NCBI GenBank assembly: GCA_027339965.1
Contig: DAHWNL010000032.1
Location: forward strand, 1 to 40,133
Source of the DNA: Granulicella sp.
GTDB taxonomy: Bacteria; Acidobacteriota; Terriglobia; Terriglobales; Acidobacteriaceae
Direction of reading: 5' to 3'
DNA length: 40,133 nt
The notes beneath the pieces were generated by a model, which ran no database searches, was not told the DNA's origin, and was given only the letters and a program-made list of their open reading frames with translations. This document shows positions 9,093 through 15,849 of this stretch, in pieces. Position 1 is the first letter of the stretch. The number at the start of each line of letters is the position of its first letter. The translations under genes and the position numbers were made by a program.

Positions 9093-9665
9093 ATGCCACA
9101 TATCGCACTGCCAGAGGGCTTGAATGGGATTCGAAGCGCGATGGCCTTCCGTCCCGAGGTTGCCCAGCCACTGAGTGAACTTGCCGAGGTGCTTCTGCAT
9201 GGACCCCATTCTCTAACCGCAGGCGAGCGAGAGTTGATTGCTACCTACGTATCGTCGCTGAATGGCTGCTATTACTGCCAGATGAGTCACGGGGCCATTG
9301 CGGCTGCGCACCTGGATGGCAATGAGGAACTGGTAAGGTGCGTAAAGGAAGATTTCCGCCGTGCCGAGATCTCCGACAAGCTTAAGGCGCTGTTGGAGAT
9401 TGCTGCAAAGGTGCAAAGGAGCGGAAGGAACGTGACTGCGGAAGACGCGGCGAATGCGCGCCGGTACGGAGCTACGGATCTGGAGATTCACGATACGGTA
9501 TTGATTGCGGCTTTCTTCTGCATGTGTAACCGGTACGTTGATGGCCTGGCTACGACACAGCCTGGCGACGAAGCCCTGTACCGGGAGCGCGGCAAGCAGG
9601 TTGCATGTGAGGGATACGTCAGCGCCGGCAAGACTTATCAGCCGCCCGCGGCTAGAACACGGTAA
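9093..9665 (+). CDS. AhpD/carboxymuconolactone-decarboxylase-family peroxidase-related protein (paralog 1)
   Basis: ERELIATYVSSLNGCYYCQMSH (E...CxxC...H signature). Confidence 0.9.
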   Translation: MPHIALPEGLNGIRSAMAFRPEVAQPLSELAEVLLHGPHSLTAGERELIATYVSSLNGCYYCQMSHGAIAAAHLDGNEELVRCVKEDFRRAEISDKLKALLEIAAKVQRSGRNVTAEDAANARRYGATDLEIHDTVLIAAFFCMCNRYVDGLATTQPGDEALYRERGKQVACEGYVSAGKTYQPPAARTR

Positions 9666-9675
9666 GGAGGAGACT

Positions 9676-10209
9676 ATGCCACATATCACTCTGCAGGAAG
9701 GACTGCCCGGCATCAGCGCCGGATTCGCTTTTCGCCCCGAGACGGCCAAGCCCATGCGCGAATTGGCTCATATTCTTCTCCATGAGCCGGGGCCGCTAAC
9801 GCCGGGAGAGAGGGAGTTGATTGCCACCTATGTCTCTGCGCGCAACGATTGCTATTTCTGCCAGGCCAGTCACGGCGGTGCAGCCGCTGCGCACCTGGGC
9901 AGCGAAGAGGTGGTGCAGAAGGTGAAGGTGGACCCGGAGGCTGCGCCCGTTTCCGCAAAGCTGAGGGCGCTGTTGAACATTGCCGGCAAGGTGCAGAGCG
10001 GAGGAAAGAATGTGAGCGAGGACGATGTTGCCCGGGCGCGCGAGTTGGGAGCTACGGACCGTGAGATTCACGATACGGTGCTGATTGCGGCGGCTTTTTG
10101 CATGTACAACCGCTATGTCGATGGCCTGGGAACATGGCAGCCGGAAGATGCATCGATGTATGCCCAGATGGGTAAGCATCTGGCAGAGCACGGATACCGG
10201 AAGCCCTGA
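9676..10209 (+). CDS. AhpD/CMD-family peroxidase-related protein (paralog 2)
   Basis: ERELIATYVSARNDCYFCQASH. AAGGAGG RBS before ATG 9676 (MPHITL), matching the starts of the other paralogs. Confidence 0.9.
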   Translation: MPHITLQEGLPGISAGFAFRPETAKPMRELAHILLHEPGPLTPGERELIATYVSARNDCYFCQASHGGAAAAHLGSEEVVQKVKVDPEAAPVSAKLRALLNIAGKVQSGGKNVSEDDVARARELGATDREIHDTVLIAAAFCMYNRYVDGLGTWQPEDASMYAQMGKHLAEHGYRKP

Positions 10210-10242: not shown

Positions 10243-11562
10243 TTGAATTCTTCAGCCGCTGAACAAGGTTACCCGGAGGAGAGCCTACGGTATCCGGGAT
10301 GGCGAGTGGTGGTGATCTGCCAGATTGGCGTGCTCACCGGAATCGCCACGATTTTCTTCTCCATTTTTACTCTGTTTCTCAAGCCCTGGCAGGTTGAGTT
10401 TGGGTGGAGCAGAGAACAGATTGCGCAGGCGTTCAGCACTGCCGCGATTACGGTCGCAATCTGCTCGCCCCTGATGGGGAGAGTTCTGGATCGATTTGAG
10501 CCGCGGAAGGTGATTGCCGCCATGATGGTGGCCTTCGGGCTGGGTTTTGCGTCGCTTGCCTGGCTGACTCCATCTACCGGACATCTTTATAGCACTGCGG
10601 TTTTTCTGGGCGTGACTGGCACGGGAACCTATCAGCTTGGCTACGCTCGGATTGTGGCCAGTTGGTTCCAGCGCCGTTTGGGTACGGCGCTTTCTGTAGT
10701 GGTAGCCGGCTCAGGCGTGGGGTCACTGTTTTTCCCTCCACTGGTGCAGCACTGCATTACGGTTTATGGCTGGCGCAGCACCACGCTGCTGCTGGCGGCT
10801 CTGCCCGTGCTGCTCGGGGCGCCACTCACCTTCCTATTTGCACCTTCTGCTGGACGTTCATCCGCGCCGCGGGATGAGAGGAAGGATGCAGCGCCGGGAT
10901 TGGGCTGGAGGCAGGCACTGGCGGGCCGCAGTTTCTGGCTGCTGGCGCTTGGAGTGTGTGCGATGTCGTTGGCCGAGAATGGCATCACGGTGCATCTGGC
11001 TCCGATGCTGAGCGATCGCGGACTGGCGGCCTCGCATGCAGCGCTGGTCGTCTCTTTTCTGGGCGGGGCCAGCGTTGGCGGTAGGCTGCTGCTCGGTTGG
11101 GTGCTGGATTATCTTGAGGGATCCTATCTTGCGATGGGTTCGTTGCTATTGGCCGGAGCCGGATTGTTTCTGCTGGGCCACGCGCATAGCTTTCCTGCGG
11201 CGATTGGCGCTGCTGTGCTTGCAGGGCTGGGCATGGGGTGCGAGTTCGATCTGATGCCTTACATTCTGAAACGCTACTTCGGGATTCGTTCGTTTTCCAC
11301 CATGTATGGGCTTCTCTACACGGGCTATGCGACGGCGGGGGCTATTGCTCCGCTGGTGATGGGCAGGATCTATGACGCAACCGGGTCCTATACCGTGATT
11401 GTCTCCATCTTTTCGGGGTGTACTGCGGTTGCAGGCCTTTGCATGTTGGCGTTGCCTGCCTACACCAACGCCGAAGAGATTGCTGTTGGCGCTGAGTCCC
11501 GGGAACCATCGGCGAAGGTTGCGGACGCGCGGGACGACGCTGATCCGGAGTACGTCGGCTGA
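10243..11562 (+). CDS. MFS transporter (OFA/MCT-like)
   Basis: About 12 hydrophobic segments; motif A GRVLDRFEPR and GWVLDY; WFQRRLGTALS. Confidence 0.9.
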   Translation: MNSSAAEQGYPEESLRYPGWRVVVICQIGVLTGIATIFFSIFTLFLKPWQVEFGWSREQIAQAFSTAAITVAICSPLMGRVLDRFEPRKVIAAMMVAFGLGFASLAWLTPSTGHLYSTAVFLGVTGTGTYQLGYARIVASWFQRRLGTALSVVVAGSGVGSLFFPPLVQHCITVYGWRSTTLLLAALPVLLGAPLTFLFAPSAGRSSAPRDERKDAAPGLGWRQALAGRSFWLLALGVCAMSLAENGITVHLAPMLSDRGLAASHAALVVSFLGGASVGGRLLLGWVLDYLEGSYLAMGSLLLAGAGLFLLGHAHSFPAAIGAAVLAGLGMGCEFDLMPYILKRYFGIRSFSTMYGLLYTGYATAGAIAPLVMGRIYDATGSYTVIVSIFSGCTAVAGLCMLALPAYTNAEEIAVGAESREPSAKVADARDDADPEYVG

Positions 11563-11673
11563 GCGTGCTGAGTCTTGCGGGAGATAGAGAGCGCGGGGCT
11601 CCGCTTTGCGGTTGGCGGGGGTGCGGGTGTGCGTCTGCCTGGCCGTAACGGTTTTCGGCAATAATATACAAGG

Positions 11674-11901
11674 CTAACCAAATTCAATTGTAATCCCGGC
11701 TAGAAGCTCCTCTGGTTGAATTACCAATCCTCGGCAAATCTCTTCCATCGTATCCAGCCGCATATTAAACAGGCCGCGCTCGATTCTGCTTAAATAAGGC
11801 CGGGTCAGATTGATGCGTCGGGCCAATTCTGTCTGAGAAATACCCTTTGCCGACCGAATGGTCTGTATACGCACTCCGAGTTGTTCAGCGAAATCATGCA
11901 T
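11674..11901 (-). CDS. XRE/Cro-C1 HTH regulator (controller-protein-like), IS passenger
   Basis: LGVRIQTIRSAKGISQTELARRINLTRPYLSRIERG; the stop codon lies inside the left IR. Confidence 0.88.
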   Translation of the reverse strand: MHDFAEQLGVRIQTIRSAKGISQTELARRINLTRPYLSRIERGLFNMRLDTMEEICRGLVIQPEELLAGITIEFG

Positions 11902-11993
11902 GGATTGTGTAAAGTTTAGCACAATACATGTTTTCCTATGCCACATGCCTTGCCTTTCGTAACCAACAGGAGCATTATCATCCAAGGTGCATC

Positions 11994-12446
11994 ATGGCAA
12001 TCGACCTACAGACCATAGAAGAACGTTTGGCGAAGGCCAAGGAAGAGGCTGCGTTTTGGGAGAAGGCCCGAGCAATCTTGGAGGACCCGAGATTGAAGGA
12101 CCTTATTACGCCACAACCACGCCCGGTATCGTCGGCCCAAAGTACGTTTACGCAGGCGGCAGCGCCTCGCGCCTACGGCGAACTGAAAAGCCGCGTGTAT
12201 GCTGTTTTACCCGACGCCGATACCTACGCAAGCTCGACCACGCAGCAGATCGTGGACAATCTGATCGAAGCGGGCTACGTATTTCAAGCGAAAGAGCCGA
12301 CGATAGCAGTTAACGGGGCGCTGGTAGCGCTTGAGGGCCAAGGGCTCGCGGAGGCGTATGGGAAGCGCGGGAACGCAAAACTGTGGAGGAAGAAGAGACA
12401 GAAAAGGGAGGAGCAAAACCAAGAGGCTCCCGAAGGAGCCTCCTAG
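11994..12446 (+). CDS. Hypothetical protein (N-terminal coiled coil, possible C-terminal winged helix), IS passenger
   Basis: MAIDLQTIEERLAKAKEEAAFWEKARAIL heptad pattern, then TTQQIVDNLIEAGY...VNGALVALE...KLWR; AAGGTG upstream. The fold is inferred. Confidence 0.7.
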   Translation: MAIDLQTIEERLAKAKEEAAFWEKARAILEDPRLKDLITPQPRPVSSAQSTFTQAAAPRAYGELKSRVYAVLPDADTYASSTTQQIVDNLIEAGYVFQAKEPTIAVNGALVALEGQGLAEAYGKRGNAKLWRKKRQKREEQNQEAPEGAS

Positions 12447-12638
12447 ACATTGACGTTAGCCTACACCCGGAGACTTGGTAAGGGCCGAAGGGTGGGCGAA
12501 CAGAGAGGAGGTGAGCAGCTTGCTCCTCTTTATCACAGAGCAGATTGGGGTCCCGCAAGGGGCCCCGTCTGTTCACTGCCACAGTAACCCATTTTCCCAA
12601 TCATTGCAAGATAACCGTTAGGGGAGTACCCTTTTGGT

Positions 12639-12815
12639 ATGAAGATTGAGCCATCCTCATCAAACCAGGAGAACCAGGCATTTACGAATGCCCTTTCTAA
12701 GGTTCTTTCCGCTCCTCGGACAAAGTCAGCAGGTCTCTCGCGGAAACGAACCGAAACACGATCCTCTGGTATCTCTTCCGTAAAGGCCCCCTCAATTGGC
12801 GGCGCTTCGCGTTAG
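12639..12815 (+). CDS. Small basic ORF (58 aa) convergent on the transposase
   Basis: MKIEPSSSNQENQAFTNALSKVLSAPRTKSAGLSRKRTETR...; GGGGAG upstream; its stop overlaps the transposase stop. Confidence 0.45.
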   Translation: MKIEPSSSNQENQAFTNALSKVLSAPRTKSAGLSRKRTETRSSGISSVKAPSIGGASR

Positions 12816-13762
12816 CATGACCCTGCCACCTGTCCGGTAACCTCTACCCAAGTCAGCCGCTTCCCCGCGATCTGCGATAAGGCTATAGCGAATCTGTCAG
12901 CATTCGTTACCTTGGGATCCTTCCGACTGCGATTGTTGAACCGGAACGATTGCTCGTCAAGGTAGCGGAACAGATGGAACGGTGCCACGCTCACATAGGT
13001 TCCATTCAGGCACCGCTTCACAAGGCTCCAGAAGTTCTCCAACCCGTTCGTGTGGATGTGGCCCCGCACGTATTCAGCAGCGTGGTTCACAATTTGGTGA
13101 ACGTATTCCTTTTCCAGTCCCCAATAGGAATGCAGTTCATCGGTCAGAATCTCCGCGCCGGGTTCGACATGCTTCTTGATGTGGCCTTGCAGCGTGGCCC
13201 GCTCCCGGTCATCCACAGCCATCGTGCGAACCTTGCCGCCCCGCTCAAGGATGCCGAAAGCGATGGACTTTCCTCCCCGGTTTGTAAGCTCCATCTTCTT
13301 GAGCCGCTTCGATATGTGCATATTCCGAGCCTTGCCGCCGATGAACGATTCATCTACTTCAACCTGTCCGCCCAGCTTGGTATTGTGTTCGTCCTGTAGC
13401 GCCTTGCGGAGCCTCTGAAGCATGAACCACGCGCTTTTCTGAGTCACGCCGATGGTGGCCGCAACCTCATAGCTGCTGATCCCGTTCTTGCAGTTCACCA
13501 GCATCCACAGCGTCACAAGCCACTTGTCGAGCGAGAGCGGCGAATCTTCAAACACCGTGCCGACCTTGACGGAAAACTGCTTCTTGCAAGCCTTGCACTT
13601 CCAACGCCACTGCGTAGCCAGCCAATAGTGCTCCTGTCCGCCACAATTGGGGCAGGTAGGCTTCCCGTCCGGCCAGCGCATCGCAGCAACCGCATCAACG
13701 CAGTTCTGAGGGTTGGCGAAGAATTTAATTGCCTCTGTTAGGGTTGGCGTCTGTTCGCTCAT
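12812..13762 (-). CDS. IS1595-family (ISXO2-like) transposase
   Basis: Zn ribbon CPNC...CKAC, HTH, VEVDESFIGG, ILTDE, HTNGLENFWSLVKR, YLDEQSFRFN; uninterrupted frame. Confidence 0.96.
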   Translation of the reverse strand: MSEQTPTLTEAIKFFANPQNCVDAVAAMRWPDGKPTCPNCGGQEHYWLATQWRWKCKACKKQFSVKVGTVFEDSPLSLDKWLVTLWMLVNCKNGISSYEVAATIGVTQKSAWFMLQRLRKALQDEHNTKLGGQVEVDESFIGGKARNMHISKRLKKMELTNRGGKSIAFGILERGGKVRTMAVDDRERATLQGHIKKHVEPGAEILTDELHSYWGLEKEYVHQIVNHAAEYVRGHIHTNGLENFWSLVKRCLNGTYVSVAPFHLFRYLDEQSFRFNNRSRKDPKVTNADRFAIALSQIAGKRLTWVEVTGQVAGSC

Positions 13763-13875
13763 CTCGTTAACCTGATAGAACAAGTATGGCTTAATTCCTT
13801 TGGTTAGTCAAGTATATTATTGCCCGGTTTTCTGATGGTACGCAGCAGCGGATCGAGGGATGGATGAAATCCTGC

Positions 13876-15849
13876 TCATTGCTCTTGTCTGGCTGTCTGA
13901 AGGTATTCCACATACCCGAGCAGCGCTCCCCAATGGTAGAAGCGGTCGCTGTTCTTCACGTCGTCGCCCTCGCCGAGGATGGCGTTGTAGTTTTCATGAA
14001 CGTGGCGATGCTGTTGCCACTCGCGGAGAAACAAGGCGTAGGACCTGGACGCTAACGCAGCCTGCGCCGTCGGCAGAGGGTAGTTGCAGAGGCCAAGGTA
14101 GACGAGGTAATTCATGGGGCCCCAGATGCGGCCTCGCCAATAGTTCTGATCGCGAAATGCGGGATCGTTTCGCGCAATCGAGGGGAGCACCCACTGGCCC
14201 CAGAACTCGGCCGGGTTCATCAGGTGTTGCCGCACCATCTGGCTTGCCTGTGCCGCAGTGGGAGCATGCGCCAGCATGGGATAAAAGTTGGTGGGAGAGA
14301 GCCGCCGGCTGAACTTGCCCGTATGCAGATCCTTGTTCAGGTAGATTCCCTCGGCCGGCGCCCAAAGCGTCTGCAACTTCACGCGAAACGCCGCACTGCG
14401 CGCTCGCAATGCCTTCGCATCCGCAGTCTTGTCCAGCACGTCGGCAATGGTGGCCAATGCATCGCAGTCGGCGATGTACAGGCTCATCAGACCGACGTCG
14501 GCGAACTCGAGTCCATGCCGCCTGGGGTCGTATACGGCATCGTCGTACATCGGGCTGTTATCGAGGCCAGACTCGAGGATCGCTCCCGCGCGGGTTCCAC
14601 GCGAGCCATCTTCGAGATTGCCGGGCGGGTTCTGTCCATCGCTGCCCCAGGCCAGGTAGCCGTCCATCTGGCGATGTCTGGGCCACCACTGGTTCCACTT
14701 CAGCAGCGCGGGATAGGCATCCTGAAGCAGCCATCGGTCGTGGTACTTCTGGTACAGGCCAAGCACCGTGATGGAGCCCACAGGGGGCTCTGAGCGGTCA
14801 AAGCTCTTCCAATTTCCACCCCTGGCGTAGTTGGGGATGAAGCCCTCGGCGGTGCTGGTGCGCAGCGTTTCGATGGCGTCCGCATAGGCCAGATCGCGAT
14901 CGCCTACCGACGCCATGGTAGCCGCGAAAAAGGTGTCCCAGTCAAAGATGACGTACCCGCCCCACTGAACGCTCCAGATGCGGCTGACCGGAGAGACGAC
15001 CCGGCCTTGCTCGGGTTCGAAGATTGTGTCCCAGCCCAGCGTGGTCTGGATCGCATCCACGATGGGACTGGTCTTTGCATTGCTGGAGAGCGACGCCTGA
15101 TAGGCTGCATGCTGCCGGTGAAGGATTGCTTTGATCTGTTCCAGGCTGCGCCTATGGCCTGTGCTGATCGCCACGGGACCGGTGAGATCGGCTGCGAAGT
15201 AGGGGCCGCCGACGCCGGGTTGCGGCAGCGTGGCTGGGGATGGTGTTTGGCAGGTGCAGAAGACATGGATGGTTGCCGTGGGCGTGATGGCCTCGATGGC
15301 ATCGCCATGCCAGCCCACCATTCCGGGGCGGTTCCACAGCAAGTCGACGGAAAAGAATGCGGTTGGCGCAAGTCCCCCTGATGGGATCGCCACAGGGCTG
15401 ACCAGCATCACCAGGTCTGCGCCGTCGTGAGCGCTCTGCACCCGCCACTGGTCGGATTTCCAGGACACCTGCAGATCGGTGTAGCTGCCGTCCCACGCAT
15501 GAGGGCCGGGCCTCACCTGCTCCGCTGTGGGATCGAGCCTCCCAATGAGCACCTCGGGCAGAAAGGCATTGCCCGATTCCGTGGTGTTGTGCTCGATGCC
15601 GAGATGGATCGCCAGACCCTCCGGCAGCAGCACCTGAGTGGTGACGCTGCGCGTATCCCAAGTGTTCCATCCCCGCGCCAGACGCTGCTGTACGGCCTTG
15701 TACTCCGCCGACTCCGGCGGCAGCGGAACCACTGCGGCGGCACTTGGATGCGCCTGGCCAAACATGGGCAGCGAATACCCGAATGCCGCAGCCAAAGCAA
15801 CTCTGCAGAGAAACGCCGCAGTGCCTCTGGAAGCAATGCCAACTCTCAT
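13876..15849 (-). CDS. Secreted (alpha/alpha)6-barrel glycoside hydrolase, GH63/MGH1/trehalase-like
   Basis: Signal peptide; FDWDTFF, SEPPV, ESGLDNSPMYD, YWRGRIWGPMNY, HENYN. Confidence 0.85.
   Translation of the reverse strand: MRVGIASRGTAAFLCRVALAAAFGYSLPMFGQAHPSAAAVVPLPPESAEYKAVQQRLARGWNTWDTRSVTTQVLLPEGLAIHLGIEHNTTESGNAFLPEVLIGRLDPTAEQVRPGPHAWDGSYTDLQVSWKSDQWRVQSAHDGADLVMLVSPVAIPSGGLAPTAFFSVDLLWNRPGMVGWHGDAIEAITPTATIHVFCTCQTPSPATLPQPGVGGPYFAADLTGPVAISTGHRRSLEQIKAILHRQHAAYQASLSSNAKTSPIVDAIQTTLGWDTIFEPEQGRVVSPVSRIWSVQWGGYVIFDWDTFFAATMASVGDRDLAYADAIETLRTSTAEGFIPNYARGGNWKSFDRSEPPVGSITVLGLYQKYHDRWLLQDAYPALLKWNQWWPRHRQMDGYLAWGSDGQNPPGNLEDGSRGTRAGAILESGLDNSPMYDDAVYDPRRHGLEFADVGLMSLYIADCDALATIADVLDKTADAKALRARSAAFRVKLQTLWAPAEGIYLNKDLHTGKFSRRLSPTNFYPMLAHAPTAAQASQMVRQHLMNPAEFWGQWVLPSIARNDPAFRDQNYWRGRIWGPMNYLVYLGLCNYPLPTAQAALASRSYALFLREWQQHRHVHENYNAILGEGDDVKNSDRFYHWGALLGYVEYLQTARQEQ

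Follow-up and report, generated by a model that had tools for sequence, protein, structure and literature searches.

In type I toxin-antitoxin (TA) systems the toxin open reading frame (ORF) is usually under 60 aa. Translational control by RNA is also known from insertion sequences (ISs), where the RNA-OUT/RNA-IN pair of IS10 and, in IS200, the hairpin in the 5′ untranslated region of tnpA together with art200 act on translation of the transposase. With respect to taxonomic range, the part of Coray et al. 2017 (PMC5367252) available to us describes all type I toxin families except SymE as confined to a single phylum, with Proteobacteria and Firmicutes named for some of them; the same part names no type I family from Acidobacteria. 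From Acidobacteria, the accessible portion of Mukai et al. 2017 (PMC5389517) reports polycistrons of irregular tRNAs and allo-tRNAs near transposon and TA genes. Literature listings for IS1595 and antisense RNA, as far as they go, yielded no description of an RNA partner. Here we analyse a hairpin-dense segment (positions 12423-12574) of Granulicella sp. contig DAHWNL010000032.1, positions 1-40,133 of the forward strand, the whole 40,133-nt stretch being referred to as the window. The segment lies inside an IS1595-family element, at and beyond the end of a plus-strand gene for an orphan protein of 150 aa (11994-12446).

The original prediction, made from the sequence alone, had described in this segment four hairpins, a sequestered Shine-Dalgarno (SD) motif and a 33-codon frame opening at TTG 12520, all of which we recovered in place. 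The reading we favour, with a probability of roughly 0.5, is that the segment is the overlap of two convergent RNAs of a passenger module of the IS, namely, a translationally locked mRNA of a small ORF (sORF1) and its cis-antisense partner, in an arrangement built like a type I TA locus. The RNA architecture as such is conserved and well supported by sequence comparison; it is carried by an IS that is probably active, in a phylum that is little studied. If the fuller reading is correct, an antisense-controlled, translationally locked small gene would be carried as cargo by an IS1595-family element in Acidobacteria.

Hairpins on opposite strands

Relatives of the 150-aa gene were fetched from 15 metagenome loci (about nine of them distinct) and one locus of a viral collection; individual loci are cited below by number (L004, L010 and so on). 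The first hairpin, H1, was aligned in eight distinct sequences; L016, which has another loop length, was excluded from the minus-strand count of pairs and contributes gap cells only to the plus-strand count. The remaining hairpins, H2-H4, were aligned in three sequences, those of the window, L010 (type L009/L010) and L013. Other sources added little. Contigs of four public DNA runs carried no variants across 12420-12600 and so no added covariation; a protein-pattern scan of one-genome-per-species contigs retrieved no relative of the 150-aa protein, and its profile matched none of 400 other genomes of the phylum. A degenerate 21-nt DNA pattern had no match in either genome or viral contigs, and a 431-nt DNA query matched one of 60 relatives, over merely 22 nt of the hairpin.

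H1 (GAGGCTCC-CGAA-GGAGCCTC at 12423-12442) is, judging from its sequence and that of its relatives, an intrinsic terminator of the minus strand (12411-12446) that overlaps the 3′ end of the 150-aa gene. In the minus-strand reading it has a 10-bp stem (12421-12444), a UUCG loop and a U-tail that is the complement of 12411-12420, and thus agrees with the definition of an intrinsic terminator as a GC-rich stem-loop with an immediate U-tract. A terminator scan called it on this strand, with 12 pairs and the tail TTTTGCTCCT. Among the pair cells of the eight relatives, 80 out of 80 are standard pairs on the minus strand versus 72 out of 80 on the plus strand, and all eight plus-strand mismatches are of the A-C/C-A type, which are G-U pairs when read on the minus strand. 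Compensatory changes were found in three of the ten pairs (nine cells), with a covariation score that was reached by none of 500 shuffles on either strand, and the RNAalifold energies are -22.3 kcal/mol (minus) versus -15.2 kcal/mol (plus). The minus-strand loop is UUCG in seven sequences and UACG in one, closed by a C-G pair, and most relatives have a U-rich tail after the hairpin (UUGGUUUUG in the window). Every relative has a stable hairpin in this place, at the stop codon of its 150-aa gene or just past it.

The position of H1 bears on how the 150-aa protein is to be read. The protein is predicted to consist of an N-terminal helix, a disordered linker, a winged-helix domain (approximately residues 59-133) and a basic tail (AlphaFold2 model with 36 homologues, mean pLDDT of 74). 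These 36 homologues, which include the window's own protein, are nearly all metagenomic, and neither Pfam nor NCBIfam has a family for it. Foldseek searches with the model returned only generic winged-helix matches (such as Fur, linker histone and Z-alpha) with E-values of 0.005 or worse and none at E <= 0.001. In this otherwise divergent family the best-conserved motif of the tail is the C-terminal QEAPEGAS, and its conservation can be attributed to the minus-strand hairpin, with which the final eight codons on the plus strand overlap. The variants QEATEVAS and QEASEEAS correspond to compensatory changes in the H1 stem. The hairpin likewise accounts for homologue P0030, in which the H1 nucleotides are present in a different frame. 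A terminator on one strand can thus dictate a conserved C-terminal peptide encoded on the other, which calls for caution when conserved protein tails are read as motifs.

The other three hairpins favour the opposite strand. H2 is a long imperfect hairpin (12455-12501), in which GCCTACACCC (12459-12468) pairs with GGGTGGGC (12490-12497), and is preceded by a conserved single-stranded motif, AGACATTGAYGTYAGCC, at 12445-12461. H3 (12502-12531) pairs AGAGGAG (12504-12510) with CTCCTCT (12523-12529) and encloses both AGGAGGTGA (12506-12514) and TTG 12520, the latter in its apical part. H4 (12538-12574) is a 16-bp hairpin inside sORF1, with GGGGTCCC-GCAA-GGGGCCCC at 12547-12566 and an outer stem in which GAGCAGAU is paired with GUCUGUUC. 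In L013 the GCAA loop of H4 is replaced by UUCG, while in the stem a C-G pair is changed to G-C and a U-G pair to U-A; both GCAA and UUCG are stable tetraloop types. RNAalifold applied to the three sequences gave H1-H4 as 48 pairs, five of them with compensatory change. Among the paired cells of H2-H4, 112 out of 119 are retained on the plus strand versus 99 out of 119 on the minus strand, because 15 plus-strand G-U cells become mismatches on the minus strand; in H2 alone, 39 out of 47 plus-strand cells are Watson-Crick and seven are G-U. The consensus fold energies of H2-H4 are -49.6 (plus) versus -38.2 (minus) kcal/mol. By this comparison of sequences, H2-H4 are plus-strand structures and the four hairpins belong to two RNAs, not to the single RNA that the original prediction had envisaged.

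The same preference was observed for the segment as a whole. Compared with 200 dinucleotide shuffles on each strand, the plus strand of 12415-12600 folds at -76.9 kcal/mol versus -60.6 +/- 4.2 for the shuffles (z = -3.92, 0/200 as good), and the minus strand gives z = -1.59, with 14/200 shuffles as good. Nucleotide identity of the block 12417-12575 to L010 and L013 is 72-79%, compared with 54-58% in the 150-aa gene, 41-45% in the 63 nt following H4 and 25-42% in the next ORF, sORF2. On these identities no other part of the module is as constrained as this block.

A further proposal concerning the fold did not hold. It had been suggested that TCTGTTC (12568-12574) could pair with either GAACAGA (12498-12504) or AGCAGA, giving two alternative folds. 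The first two elements are exactly where they had been placed and the third is displaced by one base (12539-12544); forcing TCTGTTC onto GAACAGA costs 7.6 kcal/mol, however (-53.4 vs -61.0). Nor would such a switch release the ribosome-binding site, as the forced fold leaves the SD hairpin closed, and GAACAGA is replaced by GGGCGGA in L010. The description of the segment as non-coding was only partly right, since H1 falls among the final codons of the 150-aa gene and a small ORF begins within the segment.

The small ORF and its predicted antisense partner

sORF1 (12520-12621, plus strand) comprises 33 codons, begins with MLLFITEQIGVPQGAPSV, starts with the TTG at 12520 and ends with TAG at 12619-12621. 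In the window, L010 and L013, the strong SD AGGAGGTG is located 7-8 nt ahead of the TTG or ATG (8 nt in the window), and H3 pairs this SD (12506-12513 in the window) with sORF1 codons 2-4. The first 18 codons of the three sequences align as xLF(I/L)x(E/Q)QI(G/A)VP(Q/S)G(A/T)xSV; beyond codon 18 they diverge in sequence, frame and length (22, 33 and 41 codons among the three). Four additional types of loci, L015, L018, L016/L019 and L012, are not alignable to the window at the nucleotide level. In the same place, these have a long hairpin and an SD (GGAGG, GAGG or GGAG) 4-9 nt before an ATG, followed by one or two stable hairpins within a frame of 34-53 codons. Thus, an SD, a start codon at a spacing of 4-9 nt and an ORF of 22-53 codons are found in all seven distinct loci without tRNA-like cargo (window, L010, L013, L015, L018, L016/L019 and L012).

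In each of these loci the SD is predicted to be paired. The probability that it is unpaired is 0.19 in the window and 0.04, 0.00, 0.14, 0.02, 0.03 and 0.07 in the other six, compared with an all-position mean of 0.35-0.47. The control set comprised 19 of the long window ORFs, each with an SD-like motif; their median is 0.29, with two of the 19 at or below 0.19. The models therefore predict an mRNA in which sORF1 would be translationally locked by default, and this part of the original prediction gains from the recurrence of a paired SD and a start codon at the same place in seven out of seven loci. Whether sORF1 is translated may be judged from the pattern of substitutions. Over four non-independent pairs, differences at codon positions 1/2/3 number 27/24/42, and the sORF1 frame has the best BLOSUM62 score per residue of the plus-strand frames (2.94, versus 1.27 and 2.10 for the other two). 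In a close relative from another assembly, P0037, sORF1 is fused in frame to sORF2 in a 98-aa gene call, because the spacer differs in length by 1 nt. These sequence data are suggestive of translation, not decisive.

Candidate signals for a minus-strand RNA were found just beyond H4. Past TCTGTT(C) the sequences of the window, L010 and L013 are divergent, and only a few short stretches stand out as conserved, namely, ACAGTA/ACGGTA/ACATTA (12581-12586), palindromic TTGCAA (12604-12609) and T(A/G)C(C/T)CT (12627-12632). The first two constitute a predicted minus-strand promoter (12581-12609), with TTGCAA (12609->12604) as the -35 element, a 17-nt spacer and TACTGT (12586->12581) as the -10 element. 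L010 has TTGCAA-17-TACCGT as its equivalent and L013 has TTGCAA-16-GATAAT; between the hexamers the sequence is unconserved. The predicted start, at about 12574, coincides with the edge of the conserved block, and an RNA running from there to H1 would be approximately 160 nt long. These consensus-like candidates match the promoter consensus at 7/12 positions in the window and L010, 9/12 in L013 and 10/12 in L018. In L018 promoters are laid out back to back between sORF1 and sORF2 (minus strand, TTGACA-16-GACAAT), and L015 has a weaker candidate. On the plus strand, the shared TTGCAA could serve as the -35 element of a promoter for sORF2 (12604-12632), with a 17-nt spacer and TACCCT (12627-12632) as the -10 element (7/12). 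This -10 element ends 6 nt before the ATG of sORF2; L013 retains it as TACTCT, whereas L010, whose sORF2 is truncated, does not retain it. All these promoters are predictions from consensus matches backed by conservation. A plus-strand promoter was also considered at the conserved TTGACG (12450-12455) and discarded, there being no usable -10 element in the window or L010.

Taken together, these features suggest the following scenario. On the plus strand, the transcript of the 150-aa operon, under the control of an XRE-type regulator, would continue past the stop codon into a leader formed by H2, H3 and H4, with H3 keeping the SD of sORF1 closed. On the minus strand, an RNA that is complementary to H2, to H4 and to the region around the sORF1 start would end at H1, which would stop it before antisense transcription runs into the 150-aa gene. 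Such an RNA could be a 3′ extension of, or read-through from, the transposase mRNA or, more specifically, an antisense RNA of about 160 nt initiated at the TTGCAA promoter. We propose the latter, that is, a promoter of its own, only tentatively. The antisense RNA would control either translation or stability of the sORF1 mRNA. In this respect the type I TA-like logic of the original prediction is strengthened, as the minus-strand terminator and the conserved minus-strand promoter-like pair bracket the conserved block.

Several observations weigh against this scenario. The signal for coding is weak, and RNA structure confounds it; indeed, the mirror frame on the minus strand scores 3.02, above the 2.94 of sORF1. 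The peptide is poorly conserved between subgroups (22-53 aa) and its tail cannot be aligned even between close relatives, while the peptide of the window, MLLFITEQIGVPQGAPSVHCHSNPFSQSLQDNR, lacks a hydrophobic stretch of transmembrane length. A search of the Atlas with the peptide gave no match (its recognition value is low, 1382), and residues 1-40 of P0037 had no homologue among shorter proteins. The evidence for H2-H4 comes from three close sequences only. A covariance model of H2-H4 (R1) finds just its three training sequences among 36 sources and misses the distant relatives L015, L018, L016/L019 and L012, so that the similar layout of these may represent analogy, not homology. In 150 genomes of the family R1 had a single match, of 21.8 bits, which falls within a 379-aa ORF and was set aside. 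As for the minus strand, the candidate promoter agrees with the consensus at only 7/12 positions in the window and L010, none reached the threshold in L016 or L012, and H1, being present also in L004 and L007 with their tRNA-like genes, may merely shield the module from any antisense transcription.

Other accounts of the segment

The segment might alternatively give rise to an untranslated structured RNA, with H2-H4 acting in cis, binding the winged-helix/basic-tail protein or serving as an element of mRNA processing or stability; the SD-like purine run would then be merely one strand of a helix. This account fits with sequence and helices being more conserved than the adjacent protein gene, and with a peptide that has no relatives and an unconserved tail. 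In addition, the slot after H1 seems to accept RNA genes. H1 is retained in L004 and L007, and in these loci as well as in L005 and L014 it is directly followed by tRNA-like genes (L004:1205-1379, L005:850-1024, L007:3461-3633, L014 at approximately 1935-2050). One gene is about 70 nt long and lacks a D-arm, and has an acceptor stem with G3:U70, a T-arm and an encoded CCA (Rfam tmRNA, 36 bits, threshold 47); the other has the anticodon UGG and a variable arm of 26-28 nt (Rfam tRNA, 50-59 bits). ARAGORN calls none of them. On the other hand, a well-spaced SD followed by ATG, TTG or GTG and an open frame is found in seven of seven otherwise unalignable loci. Furthermore, the sORF1 equivalents of L015 and L018 have the same length (exactly 34 codons) and the same ends, starting with MIR and ending with VSVKNG(A/T)PS, and encode the arginine by AGA and CGT, respectively, a synonymous difference. 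Rfam offers no family for such an RNA either: cmscan of 11000-14500 at E <= 10, a check that the original prediction had proposed, gave no match in 12400-12640 and two chance-level matches elsewhere (E = 2 and 7.7), and no gathering threshold was reached, including those of Sok, RatA, SR4, tRNA, tmRNA and RNA-OUT. An untranslated RNA is, on balance, unlikely, although it deserves serious consideration. A tRNA-like identity of the window segment itself was rejected, as ARAGORN called no gene (L001) and there was no tRNA or tmRNA match.

It is quite unlikely that the hairpins are only terminators and RNA-stabilizing structures placed between the passenger operon and the convergent transposase gene. 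H1 is a good minus-strand terminator, H4 is GC-rich with complementary A-rich and U-rich arms, as in a two-way terminator, and L016 has a canonical plus-strand terminator (a stem followed by UGUUUUUU) after sORF1. However, four hairpins exceed the needs of termination. The U-tract of H4 is poor (GUCUGUUCAC), H4 lies within an open frame whose stop codon is 45 nt further on, and the scan did not call it as a plus-strand terminator (tail GTCTGTTCAC); the sole terminator-like call on the plus strand of the segment is the 5-pair apical part of H3, with the tail CTCTTTATCA (12513-12525). H2 and H3 have no U-tail. Moreover, terminators usually keep their shape and not their sequence, whereas here identity (72-79%) exceeds that of the coding gene. 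The pairing of the SD, too, is kept in all seven loci.

A sharper version of the scenario that we favour, a locked sORF1 mRNA with a cis-antisense partner, and in fact a special case of it that we assess separately, is a true type I addiction module stabilizing the IS or the host replicon, in which sORF1 is the toxin and the minus-strand RNA the antitoxin. The small ORF, the predicted folded mRNA with a buried SD and the predicted convergent antisense unit with a promoter-like site and a terminator are all in keeping with this, as is their location on a mobile element, and the L018 peptide does have a hydrophobic stretch of 20-odd residues. Yet the window peptide is not membrane-like, the peptides of different subgroups differ widely, the P0037 relative carries sORF1 fused in frame to sORF2 without apparent harm, and the single-phylum families in the available part of PMC5367252, SymE aside, include none from Acidobacteria. 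We therefore regard a toxin as very unlikely. Signals acting at the DNA level account for no more than a small remainder of the probability.

Given the tRNA-like genes found in its place in other loci, one may speculate that the slot after H1 is a swappable site whose structured RNAs act in concert with the XRE regulator and the 150-aa protein, a suggestion that we consider a long shot. The same low expectation applies to the corollary that the module represents a new mobile protein-RNA system (for example, for addiction, defence or tampering with translation) carried in Acidobacteria by IS1595 elements, phage-like elements and islands at tmRNA genes. These genes also provide a genomic handle on the tRNA-like RNAs that Mukai et al. 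(PMC5389517) reported from Acidobacteria.

The mobile element and described systems

The IS1595-family element is complete (11657-13824), with terminal inverted repeats of 26 nt that are 88% complementary (left, 11657-11682; right, 13799-13824), and is flanked by an 8-bp target duplication, CGGTTTTC, at 11649-11656 and 13825-13832. Duplications of 8 bp are a trait of the IS1595 family, and the element displays all features of membership, that is, a DDE transposase, a zinc ribbon, inverted repeats and the 8-bp duplication. It occurs in a single copy in its own genome. Contigs from three of the four public DNA runs contain the empty site, in which 11648 is joined to 13825 and 2176 nt are skipped, and the insertion is hence polymorphic in the sampled populations. 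Word depth of the empty-site contigs is above that of the IS-bearing ones. By these sequence criteria the insertion is probably recent and, given the polymorphism in natural populations, the element is probably active.

From left to right, the element encodes an XRE-type helix-turn-helix (HTH) regulator on the minus strand, the 150-aa protein on the plus strand, the hairpins, sORF2 on the plus strand and a convergent transposase on the minus strand. The regulator gene (11674-11901; Pfam HTH_3, E = 2.6e-12) is divergent from the 150-aa gene and likely starts at ATG 11901, although its longest frame reaches 11985; in nine of 11 related loci, tblastn located a homologue that lies upstream of the 150-aa gene in divergent orientation. 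Between the HTH and 150-aa genes, in their divergent promoter region and where the HTH gene starts, there is an inverted repeat, TTGTG-N10-CACAA (11903-11925), which is a likely operator of the regulator. The IS1595/ISXO2-like transposase gene occupies 12812-13783 (minus strand; Pfam DDE_Tnp_IS1595, E = 5.8e-40; Zn_ribbon_IS1595, E = 1.3e-11). The IS is preceded by a transporter gene, and immediately upstream of that gene there are two tandem paralogous ORFs (9093-9665 and 9676-10209 in the ORF list), both starting with MPHI(A/T)L(P/Q)EGL.

A transposase of the IS1595 type is found downstream of the 150-aa gene in most relatives, but not in L010 or L005. L010 has a phage-like context, with an integrase and a terminase and without a transposase, and the module lies next to a tRNA array in L005; the transposase found in L004 is that of another, short IS, which has inserted beside the module. 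The array of L005 (1056-2017), directly downstream of the module, consists of eight minus-strand tRNA genes (Tyr, Ser, five Leu isoacceptors and Cys), whose transcription points toward H1. Positions 1-90 of L018, approximately 380 nt upstream of the 150-aa homologue, hold the 3′-terminal part of a genuine tmRNA gene (52 bits in Rfam), and from this sequence context the module copy of L018 appears to reside in an island integrated at ssrA. The travelling unit is thus the HTH gene, the 150-aa gene and what follows, captured whole between the IS ends in the window. Nothing was found to connect the hairpins with the IS1595 transposase itself, and the module occurs without a transposase in L010. 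A 12-nt direct repeat (12566-12577 and 13748-13759, 11/12 identical) makes the plus-strand RNA after H4 complementary to transposase codons 2-5. Antisense control of the transposase was considered on this account and dismissed; GAACAGA at codons 3-5 is found in the window only and is absent from this region in L014, L015, L018, L004 and L007. The 11/12 match is likewise lacking in the three relatives L014, L015 and L018, and the complementarity is probably due to chance.

sORF2 (12639-12815, plus strand) encodes 58 aa with the motif F..(A/F)(L/M).(K/R)(V/L)(L/V)..P. It has no SD, so that expression from a leaderless mRNA is possible, and from the position of its predicted promoter the mRNA could indeed be leaderless. 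A profile built from six sORF2 sequences retrieved 65 representatives of 46-100 aa at E <= 0.001, typically of the form ...PKPSAKN..GDF..FT.FMRRLV.VPHSEIKAKLDAEK... with the motif F..F..FMRRLV.VPHSEIK; Pfam has no family for them. Among 400 other genomes of the phylum, 18 have members of this family. From the 27 places listed we dropped the window's own copy and two places inside frames of 707 and 554 aa, which left 24. An IS1595-type transposase is convergent and directly downstream in 13 of these, convergent at about 1 kb in one, upstream in the same direction in three, and not present within 1.5 kb in the remaining seven. This distribution suggests that sORF2 is an accessory gene conserved within the IS subgroup. 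Regions upstream of sORF2 in 14 other IS1595 loci are diverse and share no hairpin-plus-sORF1 unit, which indicates that this unit travels with the 150-aa gene and not with the IS backbone.

How, then, does the locus compare with described systems? As an intrinsic terminator, H1 is typical on the minus strand (GC-rich 10-bp stem, UUCG loop and U-rich tail), and differs in being embedded in the last eight codons of a gene on the plus strand; H2-H4 fall outside the definition. The acidobacterial tRNAs of Mukai et al., to the extent that the accessible text describes them, share with the module the phylum, the habitats and an association with mobile elements, and the slot holds irregular tRNA-like genes in L004, L005, L007 and L014. 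The window segment differs from them, since it carries an SD followed by an ORF and matches neither tRNA nor tmRNA, even at E <= 10. IS10 and IS200 likewise combine an IS with an SD-sequestering hairpin and an antisense RNA. In these, however, the locked ORF is the transposase, whereas here it is not, and the module also exists without a transposase (L010).

Type I TA loci such as hok/sok, bsrG/SR4 and txpA/RatA are similar in having a small ORF (33 codons here, with equivalents of 22-53), a strongly folded mRNA with a paired SD, which in our case is predicted to block initiation, a convergent antisense unit, here a candidate one, over the ORF start region and a location on mobile DNA. They differ in that the locus has no sequence or Rfam match to them, the antisense RNA is predicted, and the sequence of the window peptide lacks the hydrophobic character of a membrane-active toxin. 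Finally, unlike in those systems, sORF1 is distal in an operon that also encodes a winged-helix protein and has a regulator of the XRE type.

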